Assembly: GCF_000007225.1 (NCBI RefSeq)
Contig: NC_003364.1
Span: 1,440,001-1,472,000, forward strand
DNA length: 32,000 nt
Direction of reading: 5' to 3'
Origin: Pyrobaculum aerophilum str. IM2
GTDB lineage: Archaea > Thermoproteota > Thermoprotei > Thermoproteales > Thermoproteaceae
In this document: positions 2,456 to 18,972 of the stretch, one piece after another
Numbering within the stretch: position 1 is the first letter of the stretch
Layout of the letters: each line of letters opens with the position of its first letter
Program-made: the position numbers and the translations under genes
The notes under the pieces: generated by a model
Databases searched by the model: none
What the model saw: the letters and a program-made list of their open reading frames with translations, nothing else
What the model was told of the DNA's origin: nothing

Positions 2456-4891
2456 TTAATACCTCACTTGTCCAAATACTTTTTTCAAAATGTCGTAAAA
2501 CTCAGAGCTCTCGTCGGGTTTATACAAGGCGTTGTATATAGCGTCTAATCTCTCCCGCAGTACTTTCAACTCCACCGAAGCGACTAAAACTCTTGTCTGC
2601 AACACGGCGTCGGGGTTTACGGATATGCTGTCTATACCCCCTCTTACTAGGAATTCCACCAGTTGCGGATACACAGAGGGCCCCTGGCCACATATTGAGA
2701 CGGTTCTACCCATTTTATGCGCCCTCTTTATGAGTTCATAAATTGCCCTCAGAACTGGCGCTTCTCTCTCGTCGAAATACTTGGGGTTAATTCTCACTAA
2801 GAAGTCGTTATCTCTATCTACCCCTAGCACTAACTGCGTCAAGTCGTTTGAGCCTATTGAGAAGCCGTCGAAATACTCGGAAAATTCCTGAACCATAAAG
2901 GCAATAGACGGCACTTGCGCCATGGCCCACACCTTAAAGTCGCGGTCGCGGTATAGTCCCTCCTCTTCTAACAGCTTGGCAAATTTCTCGGACTCCCACA
3001 CAGTCCTTACAAACGGAGCCATTACCCATATGTTATTAAGTCCCATTTCCTGCCTGGCCTTTTTAATTGCCTTTAGCTCTAATCTGAAAGCCCGCTCGTA
3101 CTGCGGCGAAATATAGCGAGATACGCCGCGCCACCCGAGCATTGGGTTGCGCTCCTCGGGCTCGAACTTCTCCCCGCCCTCTAAGCCCCTATACTCGTTA
3201 GTTTTAAAGTCGCTAAACCGTACTACCACAGGCCTGGGATAGATGGCCGAGGCCACTTTGGCTATGCCCTCAGCCATTTTATTCACGAATTTATGCTCCT
3301 GCCCTATCGATAGGAGATATAGCGGGTGTTGACCCACCCAACTGGATATAACAAACTCAATTCTCATCAGCCCAATGCCGTCAAAAGGCAAGTCTTTATA
3401 CTCATCTATTTTATCAGGCTCTCCCAAGTTCATATACACCTTTGTTGCCGTGGGCACGGCGCGGTATATGTGTAGGATTATCTCTTTTGGAGGCGCCGCC
3501 ACCCCTACCTCAACTGCCTTGGCCTCTTCCTTTTTCACTACTGCGCCGACCATGACAATGCCCTTACTGCCATCGACAGTATACGTCTCGCCGTCTTTTA
3601 ATACAGAGGTGGCGTTTCCCGCGCCAACAACAGCGGGTATGCCCAGCTCTCTGCTCACAATAGCCGCGTGAGAGGTCCTGCCCCCCTCGTCTGTCACAAT
3701 GGCTGAAGCCAAGCGCATATAAGGCACCCAGTCGGGGTCGGTCATTTTAGTCACTAAAATGTCGCCCTTCTTTAACTTCCTCTTGGCGTCTTCAAGAGTT
3801 AGGCAGATTTTAGCCTGTCCCACGGCGATGCCAGGGCTTGCCGGTATCCCCTTCACCACAACTGTGCCCACTGGCGCCTCTTCCGCGGCCTTGGCTGGCC
3901 GCTCCGCCTTACGGCTCCACACAGTCTCCGGCCTGACTTGTAATATGAAGAGGTTGCGGGGGTATTCCATGTCTGCATCAACGGCGAATTCAATATCAAC
4001 GGGATGGCCGTAATACTCCTCTAATTTAATCGCCATTTTCGCCAGCTCCACTACTTCTTCATCTGAAAGAGCTGGCGCATTTACTTTTTCAGGCGGCAGT
4101 TGTACTTCTTTTACCAAACCCGCCTCGTCTCTCACCACAGCAACCTTTTTGGGAGAAATTCTCCTCTCCACAATCTTCAGAGAAGACTTATCTACTACGA
4201 ACTCGTCCGGGGTCACAATGCCCTTAACCACCCCCTCTCCCAGCCCCCAGCTGGCCTCAATCACTACTTTAGATCTATCGCCGGTGGTGGGATCAAGAGT
4301 GAAAATAACGCCAGCAGATCTGGCGTTTACTAACTTCTGCACAACAACGGCCATTAGGCTTTTCTCATGGGGTATGCCCATTTTATCGCGATAGTACAAC
4401 GCGCGGGGAGTGTAGAGAGAGCTCCAGACCTTTTTAGCGTAGTAAATTACATTTTCGGCGCCTTTTACGTTGAGATAAGTGTCTTGTTGCCCTGCAAATG
4501 AGGCCTCCGGTATGTCCTCTGCAGTAGCCGAGCTCCTCACAGCCACGGGGACGTTGGCCATTCCTACAATTTCGCCGAGTTTTTTATACGCCTCTAAAAG
4601 CTCTTTTTCCAAGTCTGAGGGCAGCGGCGAGCTCTCAATTAATCCTCTTATAACCGTGCTGGCTTTCTCGTACTCATCGGGCTCTCCTTTCGAGATAAAT
4701 TCTTTTAATACTTCGTTAATCCTATCCTTCAAACCCGTAACATTAAGAAAGTGTAAATAGGCCTCTGTGGTTATTACAAAGCCAGGGGGGACTTGCACCA
4801 TCTTGGCCACTTCGCCGAGATTGGCCCCCTTACCGCCAGCGAGGAGAATGTCCTTTTTCCCAATTTCATCAAGCCACTTAATAAACCGCAT
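2456..4891 (-). CDS. ppsA: Phosphoenolpyruvate synthase (pyruvate, water dikinase)
   Basis: 811 aa. N-terminal GGKGANLGE ATP-grasp start, phosphohistidine swivel motif TDEGGRTSHAAIVSRELGIPAVVG, and C-terminal PEP-utilizer motif GFSIGSNDLTQL. Confidence 0.95.
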   Translation of the reverse strand: MRFIKWLDEIGKKDILLAGGKGANLGEVAKMVQVPPGFVITTEAYLHFLNVTGLKDRINEVLKEFISKGEPDEYEKASTVIRGLIESSPLPSDLEKELLEAYKKLGEIVGMANVPVAVRSSATAEDIPEASFAGQQDTYLNVKGAENVIYYAKKVWSSLYTPRALYYRDKMGIPHEKSLMAVVVQKLVNARSAGVIFTLDPTTGDRSKVVIEASWGLGEGVVKGIVTPDEFVVDKSSLKIVERRISPKKVAVVRDEAGLVKEVQLPPEKVNAPALSDEEVVELAKMAIKLEEYYGHPVDIEFAVDADMEYPRNLFILQVRPETVWSRKAERPAKAAEEAPVGTVVVKGIPASPGIAVGQAKICLTLEDAKRKLKKGDILVTKMTDPDWVPYMRLASAIVTDEGGRTSHAAIVSRELGIPAVVGAGNATSVLKDGETYTVDGSKGIVMVGAVVKKEEAKAVEVGVAAPPKEIILHIYRAVPTATKVYMNLGEPDKIDEYKDLPFDGIGLMRIEFVISSWVGQHPLYLLSIGQEHKFVNKMAEGIAKVASAIYPRPVVVRFSDFKTNEYRGLEGGEKFEPEERNPMLGWRGVSRYISPQYERAFRLELKAIKKARQEMGLNNIWVMAPFVRTVWESEKFAKLLEEEGLYRDRDFKVWAMAQVPSIAFMVQEFSEYFDGFSIGSNDLTQLVLGVDRDNDFLVRINPKYFDEREAPVLRAIYELIKRAHKMGRTVSICGQGPSVYPQLVEFLVRGGIDSISVNPDAVLQTRVLVASVELKVLRERLDAIYNALYKPDESSEFYDILKKVFGQVRY

Positions 4892-5775: not shown

Positions 5776-7011
5776 GTGATACTGCTGGCCAGGGTTTTCG
5801 AAGGGCCTAATAACGGCCTGGCGTATGCAGTGGCGCCAGTGGAGGATAAGTACAAGATCATTCCTACTAAAGATCCCTTATTAGACGCCGCTAATTTATA
5901 CGCCAAGGGGGAGAAAGTGCTTATACTGTACAGTCTCTCCACCCCTCTTTTCGTGGAGATTTGGCGCGAGCTAATAGCCGTTGCCGGCAGATTCCCCGTT
6001 GTAGCTGGCGGCCCACACGCCGCGGGAGATCCTATTACTTTGTTAAAACTCGGCGTGAAATACGTCGTAGTGGGAGACGGCGAAGTGGCCCTGCCCGCTA
6101 TTATAGAAAAAGAAGAGGGTTTAAGCGATGAAACGCCTCCCAATGTGTTAATAATGGAAGACGGAAAGGTGAAGGCGGGGAGGAGAGTATATACGGAGTT
6201 AGTTTATAAAACCTACAGCGAGGCGCTTGGCGCGTACCCCCCTATAGAGATTATGAGGTCGTGTGGATATAGATGCGCCTTCTGCCAAACTTGGGCCCAA
6301 GGCCCTGTGAGATACCGGCCGTTGGAGAAAGTAGAGGAAATGGTTAAGGTCTATGTCAAAAAAGGCCGCAGGGAAATTAGGTTCATCGCTCCTGTCGGCT
6401 TCTTATATCAGTCTAAAGACGGCAAAACGCCGAATATAGACGCCTTGATTTCCCTGTTAAAAACAGTCCGCGAGGCGGGCGGCCTGCCCTTCCTCGGCAC
6501 TTTCCCCTCGGAGACTAGGCCGGAGACTGTTACGAGAGATGTGCTGTCCGCGTTAAAAAACTTGCTAGCCAACAAGAGGCTCTCCTTCGGCTTGCAGACA
6601 GCTTCAGAGAGGCTTTTGAAACTGGCCAAGAGGGGACACGACGTTGCAACTGTGGAGGAGGCCGTCGTCACGGCGCGCGCCTTTGGCTTCACGCCAGTAG
6701 TAGATATTATAGCTGGATTGCCCGGCGAGGATGAGGAAGACGTTGTGGCCACTGTGAAGACTATGGAGAGGCTTGCGGCTATGGGCGCCAGAATTAGGAT
6801 GCATTACTTCATCCCCCTCCCCGGGACTCCGCTGTGGGGGCGGGAGCCCTCTCCGCCGCATAAATTGTATACAGAGTTCGCGAAGAGGTATAGGAAAAAA
6901 GTGGAGGGCTATTGGGAGGAGCAAATTCAACTAAGCCGCAGAATTATAGAGACTTACCGCCAAATAAGCGGCTACCTCTCCCGCACAACTCCCATCTCTA
7001 AAGCCAGTTGA
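5776..7011 (+). CDS. Radical SAM enzyme with an N-terminal B12-binding-like (Rossmann) domain
   Basis: CxxxCxxC cluster motif SCGYRCAFCQTW at about aa 160, preceded by a flavodoxin/B12-like alternating domain. GTG start with a TATA-like AAGATAAATAAAG about 20 nt upstream. Confidence 0.8.
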   Translation: MILLARVFEGPNNGLAYAVAPVEDKYKIIPTKDPLLDAANLYAKGEKVLILYSLSTPLFVEIWRELIAVAGRFPVVAGGPHAAGDPITLLKLGVKYVVVGDGEVALPAIIEKEEGLSDETPPNVLIMEDGKVKAGRRVYTELVYKTYSEALGAYPPIEIMRSCGYRCAFCQTWAQGPVRYRPLEKVEEMVKVYVKKGRREIRFIAPVGFLYQSKDGKTPNIDALISLLKTVREAGGLPFLGTFPSETRPETVTRDVLSALKNLLANKRLSFGLQTASERLLKLAKRGHDVATVEEAVVTARAFGFTPVVDIIAGLPGEDEEDVVATVKTMERLAAMGARIRMHYFIPLPGTPLWGREPSPPHKLYTEFAKRYRKKVEGYWEEQIQLSRRIIETYRQISGYLSRTTPISKAS

Positions 7012-7289
7012 AGATACCACATCGCTATACGCCTCGCCATTAGCCAGACGGCGGCTTCGGGGGATGCGCCCAGCACCTCGGCGGCTACTTCAGGGTGTAT
7101 TTTATCCCTAAGCTTCTCGGCGAAGTGCTCCACAACGGCCTCTCCAGACTCGCCGGAGAGGGACTCAATCTCCCGAAAAGTACTCTATGTGGGAAACACC
7201 TTATCTAACCAGTCCCCCAGGCCCAGCTCTTCAAGCTTGCGGAAATAAGCGGCGACGACCTCGTCAATATTGTTGATACTGGTATCCAT
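6972..7289 (-). pseudogene. 105-codon ORF interrupted by one in-frame TAG (7185-7187): a 34-aa 5-prime part and a 70-codon 3-prime part
   Basis: MDTSINNIDEVVAAYFRKLEELGLGDWLDKVFPT, then TAG, then STFREIESLSGESGEAVVEHFAEKLRDKIHPEVAAEVLGASPEAAVWLMARRIAMWYLQLALEMGVVRER, then TAG. The frame was checked by coordinate arithmetic: 6975-7184 is 210 nt. Both halves look protein-like (helical, acidic), and nothing else explains 7012-7184. Confidence 0.4.
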
Positions 7290-7605
7290 ACTCTTCGTAA
7301 TACCTCCTCCACGCCTCCTCCTTTCTCCTCTCTCTATATTCGGCCAAGCCGGTGTCGATAAGCTTCCCCCCAATTAGGCCTATGGCCAGTAATAAAATTC
7401 CACGTACTGCGTTGACGCCCAACGTATAGGGATCCGGCACACCAGAAATTTTCGCAGTTACTTGCTGGCCGAGCACTGGCAGAGTTACGTCAAGTGTCGT
7501 TTTCGGCACGCCTGCTGTGTAGAGCAATAAGGCATTTACTACGGCGAAAATAACCAAGGCAATTCCAGCGGCGAGAAAGGCCATGGCCGCGAGATGGGAT
7601 CTCAT
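7264..7605 (-). CDS. Small membrane protein (2 TM) with an R/E/Y/Q-rich C-terminal tail
   Basis: The ATG overlaps the kae1 stop (ATGA at 7602-7605). Hydrophobic segments are AAMAFLAAGIALVIFAVVNALLLY and GILLLAIGLIGGKLI. Confidence 0.6.
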   Translation of the reverse strand: MRSHLAAMAFLAAGIALVIFAVVNALLLYTAGVPKTTLDVTLPVLGQQVTAKISGVPDPYTLGVNAVRGILLLAIGLIGGKLIDTGLAEYRERRKEEAWRRYYEEYGYQYQQY

Positions 7606-8633
7606 GGCCTACGCTTTGTTGAGGTATTTAACACTACCTCCTCGCACAAGTCGTAGAACCAGGGGATGTCCACAGAGTCCAGCCGCCACCTCTGTTTAAC
7701 AAAGCTTTCTTCAGGCGTTGTGCGTATCCCACGCCTGTATGCGTAGTAGCCCGTCAACGCGATCATTGCGCCGTTGTCACCGGCGTATTCATCAGGCACA
7801 ATTTTAACAGCAACGCCGTACTCCCTCCCCACATGTTCCAATATCCCCCTCAGCCTCTTACTCCTAGCCACGCCGCCTGCCACTACGAGCTCCCGTTTTT
7901 TAGTAAAGGCGAGCGCCCTCTCGGTCACTTCAGCTAACATATAATAGGCGGCCTCTACGAGAGACTTACACACTACAGGTAGCGGCGTGCCGCTTTTCCA
8001 CAGTTTCAAGGCGTATGTGGTCAAGCCCGCATAGGATAAGTCCTGGCCAATTATAGTCATGGGGAACGGGACTAGCCTATCCGCAGATTCCGCGCACTTC
8101 TCCACGGCGGGTACCCCCGGAAATCCAAGGCCCACCTCTCTTGCAAACATATCTATAGCGTTTCCAATGGCCACATCTAAAGTCTCGCCGAAAATTCTAT
8201 ACCGACCTTCTGAAAAACCCGCAATAAGCGTGTGGCCGCCGGAGATTAGGAGGACTAGGGGATCGCACGACGCCGTTGTGTATCTCGCCACTTCTATATG
8301 CGCTATGCCGTGGTGGACAGGGACGAGGGGAACCCCCAGTTTTATAGCCAAAGCCCTGGCGAACACCGCGCCTATTCTCAACGCCGGTCCCAGCCCGGGC
8401 CCTGCCGCATATGCAATTACGTCGATATCTGATGCCGTGATGCCATGCGCGTTTAGCAACTGCCGGAAGATAACCGGAGCGACCTTGGAGTGGTGATCGG
8501 CGGCTTCCCGGGGGTGAATGCCCTCGCCGCTTGGGGGGAGGTATGTCTTCCCCAACTGTCCCAAGATTTTCCCGTCTAATACAAGTCCGAGGCTAAAGGT
8601 GTGGGCAGTGGACTCTACGCCTAGGACTAACAC
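7602..8633 (-). CDS. kae1: Kae1, tRNA N6-adenosine threonylcarbamoyltransferase (KEOPS catalytic subunit), stand-alone form
   Basis: N-terminus MLVLGVESTAHTFSLGLV, HHxxAH-type metal motif (PVHHGIAHIE), ASKHA-fold length of 343 aa, and the conserved position after rps27ae. Confidence 0.9.
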   Translation of the reverse strand: MLVLGVESTAHTFSLGLVLDGKILGQLGKTYLPPSGEGIHPREAADHHSKVAPVIFRQLLNAHGITASDIDVIAYAAGPGLGPALRIGAVFARALAIKLGVPLVPVHHGIAHIEVARYTTASCDPLVLLISGGHTLIAGFSEGRYRIFGETLDVAIGNAIDMFAREVGLGFPGVPAVEKCAESADRLVPFPMTIIGQDLSYAGLTTYALKLWKSGTPLPVVCKSLVEAAYYMLAEVTERALAFTKKRELVVAGGVARSKRLRGILEHVGREYGVAVKIVPDEYAGDNGAMIALTGYYAYRRGIRTTPEESFVKQRWRLDSVDIPWFYDLCEEVVLNTSTKRRP

Positions 8634-15891: not shown

Positions 15892-16026
15892 GGGGCTGCG
15901 CACATTGAGAGGCGCGAGGCGAAGGCATGGGGGCGGGCCGGACTGCGTATACACAGTCAGATCACAATACCAAGTGCAACAGAGGAAAGGGCAGCTATCC
16001 AGGGGAGCCCGGGGAGGAAAGATGAC

Positions 16027-16560
16027 TTAATACTCGCCCTTTCCGTACCGCCCCAAGTAGTACTCTACTACTTTTTTCAACGCCCTCCTGAGCTTTCTAT
16101 CTGCGGCGGAGGGGGATATGCCCATCATAGAGGCCAGCTCTCGAAGCGAAACCTTCCTACTCTCGTCGAAAAACCCAAATTTATAAGCTAATTCCAGCAG
16201 TCTAAGTTGCTCTTCTGTCAAGTCGGGATCTTTGATAAATTTCGCCCTGCCCAACACCCTCGGCTGAAGCCCGCGCTCGTGAAGTTCTCTTAGAATTTTA
16301 GCCAGCTGGTAAGTATTGGCCACTAAAACCACTAACGCCTTGCCTCCACATATCTTCCCGCCCACCAGTACCGCGCCGTTCCTCAGAGCCGTCTCGCACG
16401 GCTCACATTCTATTTTTGAAAGCTGTCTATCTGCGAGGACAACGTGTGTCATATTCATCCCGACAATCTCGCCGCACACGTCGCTGTCGGGGTATTTAAA
16501 AGAGACTGTGACTCTTAAAGCCATGGCATAGAGAAGGGAGTAGAATAAATACGTTAACAT
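16027..16560 (-). CDS. HTH_10 (bacterio-opsin activator type) transcriptional regulator with a Cys-containing N-terminal domain
   Basis: C-terminus LTEEQLRLLELAYKFGFFDESRKVSLRELASMMGISPSAADRKLRRALKKV is a typical HTH_10 pattern. Divergent from the ferredoxin/rSAM pair. Confidence 0.75.
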   Translation of the reverse strand: MLTYLFYSLLYAMALRVTVSFKYPDSDVCGEIVGMNMTHVVLADRQLSKIECEPCETALRNGAVLVGGKICGGKALVVLVANTYQLAKILRELHERGLQPRVLGRAKFIKDPDLTEEQLRLLELAYKFGFFDESRKVSLRELASMMGISPSAADRKLRRALKKVVEYYLGRYGKGEY

Positions 16561-16626
16561 GTTTCACCGATCCCAGCTTCAATATTTTACGTAGGCGGAT
16601 AAATATGAGGTTTTACTTTCTCAGCC

Positions 16627-16953
16627 ATGGCGGCGGAGCTAGCTAAATACCAAAGGGTGTTAATAGACCAAGACACTTGTATAAGTTGTGGCGCTTGTGT
16701 GGCGGCATGTCCTTACCAAGCGCTTGAGCTAGATGAAAACGGCAAGGCGAGGCTAATTTGGGAAATGTGTAAAGACGACTTTTCTTGCGTCGCCGTATGT
16801 CCTGTGAAATGTATATACAAGGTAAGTGAGGCGCCGGCAGAATTAAAGGGAAAGAAGGGCTGGTACAGGTTTGGGAAGGCGCTTTCGCCAGAGGAGCAGA
16901 AAGCCTACGAGGAGTGGAAGGCCAAATTCGGAGTCACGGCGCCTCCCGTGTAA
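16627..16953 (+). CDS. 2x[4Fe-4S] ferredoxin with a C-terminal basic extension
   Basis: CISCGACVAACP and CKDDFSCVAVCP cluster motifs. A TATA-like ATAAATAT lies 20 nt upstream. Confidence 0.85.
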   Translation: MAAELAKYQRVLIDQDTCISCGACVAACPYQALELDENGKARLIWEMCKDDFSCVAVCPVKCIYKVSEAPAELKGKKGWYRFGKALSPEEQKAYEEWKAKFGVTAPPV

Positions 16954-16984
16954 CAAATTTATATCCCCAACCCCTCTTTTTTCC

Positions 16985-18079
16985 GTGGGTTTTTGTAAAT
17001 TATGTGGCAAGAGCAGTATAACAATTTCAAATTTTCTCGGCGTTTGCGTAGACTGCCTCAGGGGAAGGCCCCGGCAGGCACTAGAGATAGCAAAGAGAGC
17101 CCACATAATTAGCAGGGGCAAGTTTAATTTGCCCATAGAGGCGCCTACTAAAGGCGTGCCGTGTGGAATTTGTGGGAGGGGCTGCCTAATCCCCGAGGGC
17201 GGCGTCGGCTACTGCGGACTGGTGAGAAATATCGGCGGGCGGCTGGTGAGGCCAGGCGGGGAGATATCCAAGGGCGTGCTCTCCTACTACTACGACCCCA
17301 TTCCCACGAACTGCGTGGCCGATTGGGTGTGCCCGGCCACTACGGGGAGGGGGTATCCAAAATTCTCTAAATCCCCTTGGGGCGAGGCGGGCTATTATAA
17401 CCTCGCTGTTTTCTACGGGGCATGCGGCCTAGACTGCCTTTACTGTCAAAACTGGCAGTACAGAGAGTACCCGGCGCGGCCTAGGCTTGTCGCCGTCGAG
17501 GAGCTTGAAAAGGCAATGAACAGGCGCGTCACGTGCGTCTGCTTTTTCGGCGGCGACCCAGGCCCCCAGACTGTCCACGCGCTTATGGTGGCAAAGAAAG
17601 CGGCGGAAAAAGGGGTAAGAGTGTGTTGGGAGACCAGCGGCCAGCTGGCCCCCCACTTGTTAGACAGGATTGTAGATTTCTCGTTGAGAACGGGGGGCAT
17701 TGTCAAATTTGATTTAAAGGCCTTTACCCCCAGCGTTTATAAAGCTCTTACAGACGGGGAGGTAGACGTGGCGTTGAGAAATTTCAAAGTCGCGGCTAGG
17801 AGGTTTAGGGAGAGGCCGGAGGTTCCCCTCGTCGTTGCGTCTATTCTCCTCGTCCCAGGATATGTAGATGCTGTTGAAGTGGATTTATTAACTAAGTTTA
17901 TCGCGCGTATTGATCCCGAGATACCCACTAGATTTCTCGCCTTTCACCCCGACTATCTGCTTAGGGATCTTCCGCCTACTTCTATTAAACACGCAGAAGA
18001 AGCTGTTAGAATAGCTAAAGAAAACGGTCTTATGGAGGTAAGTATTAGAAACCAGTGGCTACTCGGCGATTATTACTAA
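16985..18079 (+). CDS. Radical SAM activase-type enzyme (PflA / AmmeMemoRadiSam-like) with an N-terminal Cys-rich region
   Basis: FYGACGLDCLYCQNWQY carries CxxxCxxC plus NW. The upstream CGICGRGCLIPEGGVGYCGLVRNIGGRLV is typical of this class. The ORF-track start at 16871 overlaps the ferredoxin, so I prefer the in-frame GTG at 16985 (VGFCKLCGK...), 31 nt after the ferredoxin stop. Confidence 0.8.
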   Translation: MGFCKLCGKSSITISNFLGVCVDCLRGRPRQALEIAKRAHIISRGKFNLPIEAPTKGVPCGICGRGCLIPEGGVGYCGLVRNIGGRLVRPGGEISKGVLSYYYDPIPTNCVADWVCPATTGRGYPKFSKSPWGEAGYYNLAVFYGACGLDCLYCQNWQYREYPARPRLVAVEELEKAMNRRVTCVCFFGGDPGPQTVHALMVAKKAAEKGVRVCWETSGQLAPHLLDRIVDFSLRTGGIVKFDLKAFTPSVYKALTDGEVDVALRNFKVAARRFRERPEVPLVVASILLVPGYVDAVEVDLLTKFIARIDPEIPTRFLAFHPDYLLRDLPPTSIKHAEEAVRIAKENGLMEVSIRNQWLLGDYY

Positions 18080-18415
18080 CCCCTTCCTCAACCACACTGC
18101 AATTCCAACATTGAGCAGTACGTCCCCTATCCCTTCGGGCGCCCCGGGGGACACGGGGCCCCAGGGCGCCGTTCGGCCCCCTGGGGCGGGCCGCGCCCGG
18201 GGCGTCGGCGACCCCCTCGGCGGGTTCTCCCCGCCTTCGGCCCGTTTGTAGGGGCTGCCCCGCCCTGCCCGGGGCGGGGTGGGGGGCGATAACTCCTTCA
18301 TGACTCTCTTTTGCACATCCCCCAATTTTGAACTTTTCTCTTTCAACTGTCTAAATACCGTGGCGTGGCAATGCACATTTTCCGGCGTTTTGGCGCCACT
18401 TTGTTTTGAGCCCAT
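18059..18415 (-). CDS. Hypothetical 118-aa ORF with a P/G/R-rich low-complexity core; coding status doubtful
   Basis: The internal ATG at 18415-18413 overlaps the tdk stop (TAATG). The middle 60 aa (SPPTPPRAGRGSPYKRAEGGENPPRGSPTPRARPAPGGRTAPWGPVSPGAPEG) are simply a translation of the GC island, where stop codons are rare by composition. Confidence 0.3.
   Translation of the reverse strand: MGSKQSGAKTPENVHCHATVFRQLKEKSSKLGDVQKRVMKELSPPTPPRAGRGSPYKRAEGGENPPRGSPTPRARPAPGGRTAPWGPVSPGAPEGIGDVLLNVGIAVWLRKGLVIIAE
18121..18288 (+). ncRNA. Candidate structured RNA or RNA element of unassigned family, in an extremely GC-rich island
   Basis: By hand count 28 of 168 nt are A/T, giving about 83% GC against 50-60% around it. 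18121-18133 can pair with 18276-18288 over 13 consecutive pairs, including 3 G-U pairs that work only on the + strand. Several GC hairpins are present (for example 18158-18170/18175-18187). No motifs of tRNA, RNase P, SRP RNA or C/D sRNA were recognised. Confidence 0.35.
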
Positions 18416-18972
18416 TATGGAGGAATTACATAATGACGTCTGCAACGGGCTTCGTACGACTCGTTCCCGCCGATTAAAATACGGGGGCTGTGTCTCGGCG
18501 CCGGGACTCCGTTTATTAGCCTCTGAGTTCTAGTTGCCGGCTTTCCGCATAGTTTGCAAACAGCGCTTAGCGAAATTACCCTATCTGCAAAGGCCATTGC
18601 CCTCGCAGTGGTCTCAAAGGGCTCTCCCCTGAAATCTAAGTTGAGCCCTGCCGCTATTACAATTCTGCCGTTGGCCAACTGGTTGAGCGCATCGGCTAAA
18701 TCCACGGGGAAGAATTGTATTTCGTCAACTGCCACAACGTCGTACTCAGCTCCCATTTTACGTATAATTTCAACGCCGTCTTTATCCGGCGGTATGACAA
18801 ACGCGTCGAATTTTAAGCCGTTGTGAGCCGCCACTTTAGAGGCATCGTACCTGACGTCTAATGACGGCTTGAAGACAATGGCCCTCCGCCCGGCGATTAC
18901 ATACCTCTCCACTCTCCTAATGAGCTCCGTGGTTTTCCCTGCGAACATGGGCCCCACAATAACAACAAGCAC
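18415..18972 (-). CDS. tdk: Thymidine kinase (TK1 type)
   Basis: P-loop VIVGPMFAGKTTELIRR, VAVDEIQFF, and C-terminal zinc motif CKLCGKPATRTQR...ARCRRHY. Confidence 0.9.
   Translation of the reverse strand: MLVVIVGPMFAGKTTELIRRVERYVIAGRRAIVFKPSLDVRYDASKVAAHNGLKFDAFVIPPDKDGVEIIRKMGAEYDVVAVDEIQFFPVDLADALNQLANGRIVIAAGLNLDFRGEPFETTARAMAFADRVISLSAVCKLCGKPATRTQRLINGVPAPRHSPRILIGGNESYEARCRRHYVIPP

Follow-up and report, generated by a model that had tools for sequence, protein, structure and literature searches.

A sharp GC-rich island in the genome of a hyperthermophile poses a simple question: is it the gene of a stable RNA, or is it something else? The island considered here lies at positions 18121-18288 of a 32,000-nucleotide (nt) stretch of the Pyrobaculum aerophilum str. 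IM2 genome (contig NC_003364.1, positions 1,440,001 to 1,472,000; "the window" below, in whose coordinates positions are given unless another locus is named), between two convergent genes, one for a radical SAM protein (plus strand) and one for thymidine kinase (minus strand). A guanine-plus-cytosine (GC) content of 83% within a 50%-GC hyperthermophile genome is a typical mark of stable RNAs, and the original prediction, made from the sequence alone, saw in the island a candidate structured RNA of unknown family, with plus-strand transcription favoured. We find that the island is a copy of paREP13, a multi-copy repeat restricted to P. aerophilum. The copy is probably truncated and stands alone, with the island as its GC-rich body, and it would be a non-coding module derived from an element with a TnpB-like gene. 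In this proposal the multi-hairpin body, of ~170 nt and ~80% GC, would be preceded by a leader of ~50 nt that originated as a copy of the TnpB-like gene's promoter and start codon.

A multi-copy, non-coding repeat

Counted base by base, the 168 nt of the island comprise 70 C, 70 G, 22 T and 6 A, which gives 28 A/T positions and 83.3% GC and agrees with the composition first reported for it (28 A/T, about 83% GC). The window as a whole averages 50.1% GC (standard deviation 8.6% in 100-nt sliding frames), and the island peaks at 88% in the 100-nt frame at 18136. Elsewhere in the window a single 100-nt stretch (3819-3918) reaches 70% GC or more; it falls within an 811-amino-acid (aa) open reading frame (ORF) on the minus strand (2456-4891).

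Translated from the minus strand, the island matches an 81-aa P. aerophilum ORF that UniRef carries as PaREP13 (E 3e-9), and a profile search, in which E values of 1e-26, 4e-16 and 1e-10 were obtained, adds three ORFs, including an IM2 entry named paREP13. The matching ORFs are P0122, P0123 and P0124, all labelled PaREP13 and with P. aerophilum source names, and, weakly (E 1.4), P0125, which comes from a contig of a metagenome-assembled genome (MAG) and has no source name. The name paREP13 was already present in the 2002 annotation of the IM2 genome. In the literature that could be searched no paper mentions it, and the Pyrobaculum small-RNA paper does not mention the window locus.

At the DNA level, four copies could be read and compared: that of the window and three further copies at L096 (4996-5232), L102 (8347-8583; P. 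aerophilum assembly GCA_003400145.1, contig NMUF01000006.1) and L103 (156-392), which lie at unrelated loci with differing neighbours. All three align to the minus strand of the window from 18351 to 18120 (~232 nt), and the identity between copies is 75-91%. The whole repeat unit at this locus, a truncated solo paREP13 copy, spans 18120-18351, with the minus strand taken as sense, and nhmmer matches it from 18351 to 18117 (E 1e-58). A profile of the four copies scores each of them at E 1e-58 to 8e-74 and finds no further match in the window or at other Pyrobaculum loci. The predicted island is thus the GC-rich body (18121-18288, minus strand) of a unit that is 232 nt long and not 168. Similarly, the G-runs and plus-strand T-tracts that had been pointed out are present, and the T-tracts turn out to be the complement of a conserved A-rich leader that is itself part of the unit. 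With the IM2 copy P0124, which has no DNA record, at least five copies have been seen (the window plus at least four in P. aerophilum assemblies).

Short-read assemblies break at this repeat. Three Logan contigs (k = 31) stop inside the leader, and in two cases the stop lies 31-32 nt into the repeat; such breaks at the repeat edge place the upstream boundary of the unit at 18351 and indicate that it is multi-copy in those genomes. Taking Logan and ENA contigs together (L087-L090, corresponding to window 18245-18321), the number of short-read contigs that end within the element or at its edge is four; of the two that reach 31-32 nt into the repeat, the shorter does so by exactly k = 31. The breaks are independent evidence of several copies in these genomes.

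The family is narrowly distributed. Searched exhaustively with HMMER, 1.84 billion cluster representatives yielded three clusters only, so that paREP13 looks confined to P. aerophilum. In metagenomes, a 20-mer from the leader recovered the same locus and four chance matches only, and scans of IMG/VR with a 20-mer and with the TnpB-like protein described below gave no match. A foreign origin was also considered and set aside: blastn against phage and plasmid collections produced one chance Streptomyces match only.

Gene callers have read the repeat as protein. Four assemblies call a minus-strand ORF of 118-128 aa over the island (18059-18445), which overlaps the ends of both flanking genes, and ORFs of 59-170 aa are called over every paREP13 copy. 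A real small protein, translated from a leaderless mRNA beginning at a conserved ATG, would fit these calls, and it would also fit the distance of that ATG from a TATA-like box, which is as expected, and the similarity of the first ~20 residues between copies (MKELxPPTPPRAGRGGPY). We regard such a protein as very improbable. Indels of 1, 14-16, 1, 8 and 1 nt separate the copies within the GC body, so that the reading frame is not kept between them while the DNA stays 75-91% identical. The called proteins are alike over their ~20 N-terminal residues and fully divergent thereafter, with C-terminal sequences, lengths and stop positions that all differ. The N-terminal likeness follows from the invariance of the underlying DNA, and the few changes within it are mostly non-synonymous. 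Beyond this, the sequences are of the low-complexity P/G/R/A type expected when GC-rich DNA is translated, Pfam has no family that matches the paREP13 ORFs, and the frames stay open because DNA of 80% GC contains few stop codons. The repeat is non-coding and without coding constraint, as had been assumed for the island at the outset, and both the ORF at 18059-18445 and the paREP13 "protein family" are most likely annotation artefacts of a GC-rich non-coding repeat.

The leader and the TnpB-like gene

The best-conserved part of the unit is its A-rich, promoter-like leader, 50 nt on the minus strand (18302-18351) that start GACAGTTGAAAGAGAAAAGTTCAAAATTGGGGG; the block 18319-18351 is identical in the window and L096. 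Within the leader lies a TATA-like box, TTCAAAATT (18324-18332, minus strand), which would act as a promoter element. It occupies -31 to -23 relative to a conserved ATG (18299-18301, minus strand; ATGA[A/G]GG), and the TATA-like boxes of seven genes in the window lie at about -29 to -21. Such a spacing of TATA box and start is the leaderless pattern usual in Pyrobaculum, and the conserved ATG is the likely start of a leaderless transcript. Reading frames downstream of this ATG differ between copies.

In L102 the unit sits just downstream of a gene for a TnpB-like protein (381 aa, 6978-8123), in the same orientation. TnpB is an RNA-guided nuclease family of the IS200/IS605 type. The L102 protein scores 27.9 bits against Pfam PF07282 (Cas12f1-like TNB), above the cut-off of 26.3, and 37 bits (E 2e-9) against NCBIfam guided_TnpB, below the cut-off of 100; its best match in the PDB is an RNA-guided nuclease (E 0.002). 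The gene has a TATA-like box of its own, GTTCAAAAC, at -29 to -22, and its start, ATGAAGGTA, has the conserved ATG motif in common with the repeat. The leader and the region upstream of the TnpB-like gene are homologous: their local alignment score of 17-18 compares with 7.5 +/- 1.3 for shuffled sequences and was reached by none of 1000 shuffles. From this homology it follows that a putative promoter travels with the element in minus orientation. The upstream flanks of the copies in plus orientation are unrelated to one another, so that no promoter travels with the element on the plus strand.

Comparison of the four loci suggests how such an arrangement could have arisen. Within L102 6709-8264, inverted 78-nt arrays built of 32-nt GTTCAAC-N9-YTGAAAG units stand on either side of the TnpB-like gene; these arrays could be element ends or operator sites. 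Full-length copies of the repeat carry an added upstream array of 32-nt GTTCAAC...TGAAAG units and stand at the right-hand end of the TnpB-like cassette; the window copy is the shortest, with leader and body and without the GTTCAAC array. L096 corresponds to L102 without the tnpB cassette (6798-8242), at whose borders lies a 22-nt direct repeat. L103 opens with the stretch found ahead of the TnpB-like gene in L102, but in reverse complement, as though the cassette had been inverted. Given the deletion in L096, the apparent inversion in L103 and the still shorter copy in the window, the family members look like derivatives that arose by deletion and rearrangement from one putative composite element, with the GC body as its right-hand end.

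Two further features of these loci were noted. A hairpin with 49-nt arms lies at L102 6837-6937, between the left array and the promoter of the TnpB-like gene, and L096 holds a second, diverged leader (4755-4822), inverted across the GTTCAAC array and ending in ATGAGAG, which places the array between two divergent promoter-like leaders.

The position of the body beside the TnpB-like gene allows a bolder interpretation. The body could be an omega-RNA-like guide scaffold for a divergent TnpB-like nuclease, supplied with its own copy of the tnpB promoter; the sequence 3' of ...GGGGAC would then be the guide, and solo copies would be orphan guides acting in trans. The copies do lose their homology abruptly past GGGGAC(R)T, the leader has its homologue in the tnpB promoter, and in L102 the body stands at the right end of the tnpB cassette in the same orientation, where the 3' end of the tnpB-like gene offers no other GC-rich structured stretch. 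Moreover, the GC-rich 3' island of another TnpB, in P. islandicum, folds well, as a heat-stable omega-RNA would be expected to do. We nevertheless give this interpretation only a modest chance. Known omega-RNAs overlap the 3' end of tnpB, whereas the GC body in L102 starts 224 nt past the tnpB stop, beyond an intervening array and second leader. There is no Rfam or sequence similarity to known omega-RNAs, the protein is itself weakly TnpB-like (below the NCBIfam cut-off, PDB E 0.002), and direct adjacency occurs once. That paREP13 constitutes a free-standing family of guide-RNA genes for a divergent TnpB-like nuclease in a hyperthermophilic crenarchaeon strikes us as quite unlikely. If it were true, the family would be an intermediate between transposon-borne omega-RNAs and independently encoded guide RNAs, and a functional link to TnpB would imply a nuclease of the TnpB type with an RNA partner that is transcribed from a separate promoter and dispersed as solo copies.

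The P. islandicum island is of interest in its own right. It lies in strain DSM 4184 (CP000504.1; L092 1521-1960), reaches up to 84% GC, folds better than shuffled sequence (z -3.05) and consists of the 3' end of a 433-aa TnpB gene (476-1777) together with 180 nt downstream; it has no Rfam match. It is likely a heat-stable omega-RNA and indicates what a heat-stable RNA partner of TnpB may look like in Pyrobaculum. The TnpB gene adjoins the S30-DUF401 genes, the same neighbourhood as that of the window, and nhmmer detects no sequence similarity between this island and paREP13. No paper on a TnpB system in Pyrobaculum turned up in the literature that could be searched.

Hairpins, strand and transcript

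Most of the pairings first described for the island exist. The terminal helix (18121-18133/18276-18288) is paired along its full length (13 of 13 standard pairs, including three U-G); 12 of 13 pairs form in the hairpin 18158-18170/18175-18187, with one C-C mismatch and a GUUC loop; and the pairing 18188-18193/18238-18243 and the hairpin 18219-18224/18230-18235 are complete at six of six each. A further proposed hairpin, 18199-18204/18209-18215, has four pairs only. The 10-nt direct repeat GCCCGGGGCG does occur at 18195 and 18267, and a cUUCGg loop at 18133 is not kept in the other copies.

Comparison between copies singles out a core of hairpins. Ha (18258-18279; CCCCGCCC / GGGCGGGG, 8 base pairs (bp)) has arms that are unchanged in all four copies, paired in three of them and out of register in L096. 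Hb (18238-18257; CGGCCC / GGGCUG) has 6 bp, one of which in the window copy is G-U on the plus strand and a mismatched A-C on the minus; the strain variant T18256C restores G-C at this pair. Hc (18219-18235; GGCGGG / CCCGCC) bears in its loop, in L096, L102 and L103, an insertion of 14-16 nt that is itself a perfect hairpin (GCCCC-UUC-GGGGC). These three are nearly invariant across copies. The window-type hairpin He (18158-18187; 13-nt arms, one mismatch) is replaced in the other, L102-type subfamily by a different 7-bp hairpin, CUCCGCG/CGCGGAG. Changes within helices include one G-C to A-U and another G-C to C-G. On the minus strand 93.4% of cells are paired with three double changes, which 7 of 500 shuffles equalled; on the plus strand the figures are 96.2%, four double changes and 3 of 500. 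With four sequences and structures predicted from the same alignments, these counts lend modest support to hairpins that have been maintained.

No known RNA family accounts for the island, as had been reported. Rfam 15 (including RNaseP-T, archaeal signal recognition particle (SRP), H/ACA, C/D small RNAs (sRNAs) and IS605-associated motifs) gave no match at gathering threshold anywhere in the window, and in E-value mode (E <= 10) the best hit, 17.5 bits and E 1.2, was at chance level. The full L102 copy with its tnpB likewise gave chance-level matches only, and ARAGORN found no transfer RNA or transfer-messenger RNA in the window. A type T RNase P RNA was considered on account of size and GC content and was rejected, since no model matched; type T models score 117-169 bits on true Thermoproteaceae members, and Pyrobaculum RNase P RNAs have 74-78% GC (PMC3579882).

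In the scenario that we favour, minus-strand transcription from the repeat's own promoter, with a start near 18301, would yield a very stable, hairpin-rich RNA. We give the promoter homology more weight than the wobble signal and on that basis lean slightly towards the minus strand. The kept hairpins leave a structured RNA product, as first proposed, a reasonable expectation, and any function that such an RNA may have is hypothetical.

Several observations weigh against this scenario. Transcription and its strand are themselves deduced, and the TATA-like box of the element (TTCAAAAT) is weaker than the boxes of neighbouring genes. The TnpB-like gene adjoins one of the four copies read; the window has no tnpB, and L103 has only the sequence upstream of it. 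Neither terminal inverted repeats nor target duplications were identified for the window copy. The folding energy of the island barely beats dinucleotide shuffles (z -1.96 for the plus and -2.50 for the minus strand; -0.6 to -2.5 across the four copies and both strands) and does not set it apart from chance. The compensatory changes are strand-symmetric, the covariation being thin and equal on both strands. Finally, one-sided changes that keep a wobble pair number seven on the plus strand and none on the minus strand, and the three single-nucleotide polymorphisms (SNPs) by which strains differ within stems all allow a G-U pair on the plus strand only.

These last two signals fit a plus-strand RNA, either an independent sRNA or a 3' untranslated region (UTR) or stability element of the radical SAM gene, ended by the T-tracts at 18309-18345. 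The same holds for the terminal 13-bp helix with its three G-U pairs, from which the plus strand had originally been favoured, and for two cUUCGg motifs on that strand. Furthermore, read-through is likely since no T-tract separates the radical SAM stop from the island, and the complement of the leader supplies T4 tracts in every copy. The wobble excess is, however, confounded. Differences of the C/T kind outnumber those of the G/A kind on the plus strand by 21:7 in unpaired columns and by 6:1 in paired ones, and this general excess, which may be compositional or mutational, amounts to 3:1 where no pairing is involved. We therefore rejected the assignment of strand by G-U pairs as not decisive; the leader and its TATA-like box point to the minus strand. 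A host sRNA or radical SAM UTR element also sits poorly with a multi-copy, species-restricted repeat whose other copies lie at unrelated loci without a radical SAM gene or shared plus-strand upstream sequence, and in other Pyrobaculum species the radical SAM orthologue comes without the element. With the cUUCGg at 18133 not conserved in the other copies and a plus-strand z of only -1.96, we find a plus-strand sRNA or radical SAM element of this kind quite unlikely.

Another alternative dispenses with a functional transcript altogether. The island could be a selfish repeat at the level of DNA, a palindrome used in transposition or recombination in the manner of IS200/IS605-type end hairpins. 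The symmetry of the compensatory changes, with both strands folding equally well, would be expected of such a sequence; the arrays and cassette show recombination between repeats, a copy sits at an inversion junction, and the family is small and confined to one species. We judge this account credible but unlikely. The best-conserved part of the unit is a leader homologous to a gene promoter and start codon, which a DNA end would not need, and 83% GC in a hyperthermophile is typical of stable RNAs. In addition, no TnpA-type transposase, terminal inverted repeats or target duplications were found.

The inversion junction and comparable systems

The island's neighbours are well defined. The radical SAM gene (plus strand, most likely 16985-18079; Pfam PF04055) encodes a protein identical to an NCBI entry named from Pyrobaculum aerophilum. 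Its longest ORF, 16871-18079, would give 402 aa from a TTG start and overlap the ferredoxin gene; gene callers and homologues back a 364-aa product from the GTG at 16985, downstream of a TTTATAT box. The thymidine kinase gene (minus strand, 18415-18972) matches Pfam PF00265. Two flanks separate these genes from the repeat: 40 nt between the 3' end of the element (GGGGAC) and the radical SAM stop (18080-18119), without counterpart in other copies or in relatives, and 63 nt between the thymidine kinase stop and the 5' end of the element (18352-18414), outside the repeat.

Relatives reveal that the locus has been rearranged. The gene order in P. oguniense, P. islandicum and two Pyrobaculum MAGs is S30, DUF401, (thymidine kinase), (HTH_10), ferredoxin, radical SAM, then a convergent DUF790 gene. 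None of these four has the island, and their convergent genes abut or overlap, with no spacer at this position with which the window's intergenic region could be aligned. None of 80 thymidine kinase loci, taken from one genome per species, resembles the island either. Relative to the same four (L001, L003, L091 and L092), the HTH_10-ferredoxin-radical SAM block (16027-18079, ~2 kb) is inverted in P. aerophilum. Each junction has extra DNA: thymidine kinase and radical SAM are separated by 335 nt, which hold the island, and DUF790 and HTH_10 by 135 nt. The inverted arrangement, with the element at the locus, is common to six P. aerophilum assemblies, whose islands differ at five SNP positions only.

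The second junction deserves a comment. Its 135 nt (15892-16026) have no counterpart in relatives, and the stretch of 31 nt with which they end (CCAGGGGAGCCCGGGGAGGAAAGATGAC...) bears a likeness to the 3' terminus of the paREP13 body, at 77% identity (E 0.004 against a tiny database; p ~0.02 by Smith-Waterman). The four-copy nhmmer profile has no match there, and the weak matches seen are not collinear. A degenerate second copy, if real, would explain the inversion as recombination between inverted repeats; the match is marginal, and its orientation is as expected. Rearrangements associated with paREP elements in Pyrobaculum have been described (PMC3558965), and paREP13 at a species-specific inversion junction adds a small example to them. 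The local effect of the element is probably incidental: the hairpins and plus-strand T4 tracts may end or buffer read-through from both of the newly juxtaposed convergent genes.

More generally, GC islands are used as beacons for stable RNAs in hyperthermophiles, and the present one, which is probably a mobile-element module instead, calls for caution in genome scans. Set beside the stable RNAs that such scans seek (type T RNase P RNA, SRP RNA, H/ACA-like sRNAs), paREP13 shares the sharp GC island in a genome of ~50% GC and a size like that of type T, and differs in having no Rfam match, in being multi-copy and in lacking conservation in other Pyrobaculum species. Its homology with the annotated paREP13 "protein" is direct, but the copies do not keep frame, and the window copy lacks the array.

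The likeness to TnpB omega-RNAs lies in a module of ~170-230 nt that follows a TnpB-like gene, shares its orientation and occupies the right edge of the repeated unit, with a sharp edge followed by unrelated flank and a leader shared with tnpB. The differences are the absence of overlap with the tnpB 3' end, the promoter-like leader of its own, the intervening array, the solo copies far from tnpB and the lack of sequence or covariance-model similarity to known families.

The remaining comparison is with miniature inverted-repeat transposable elements (MITEs) and other non-autonomous derivatives of insertion sequences. Unlike MITEs, paREP13 has no identified terminal inverted repeats or target-site duplications, a low copy number (at least five) and a promoter-like leader. 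It is present at this site in six of six P. aerophilum assemblies examined and absent only in other species, so that its mobility is putative. It resembles them in being short, non-coding, hairpin-rich, multi-copy and intergenic, in its derivation by deletion from a larger element (L096 versus L102) and in its association with genome rearrangement, and in part, therefore, paREP13 fits the definition of a MITE-like element.

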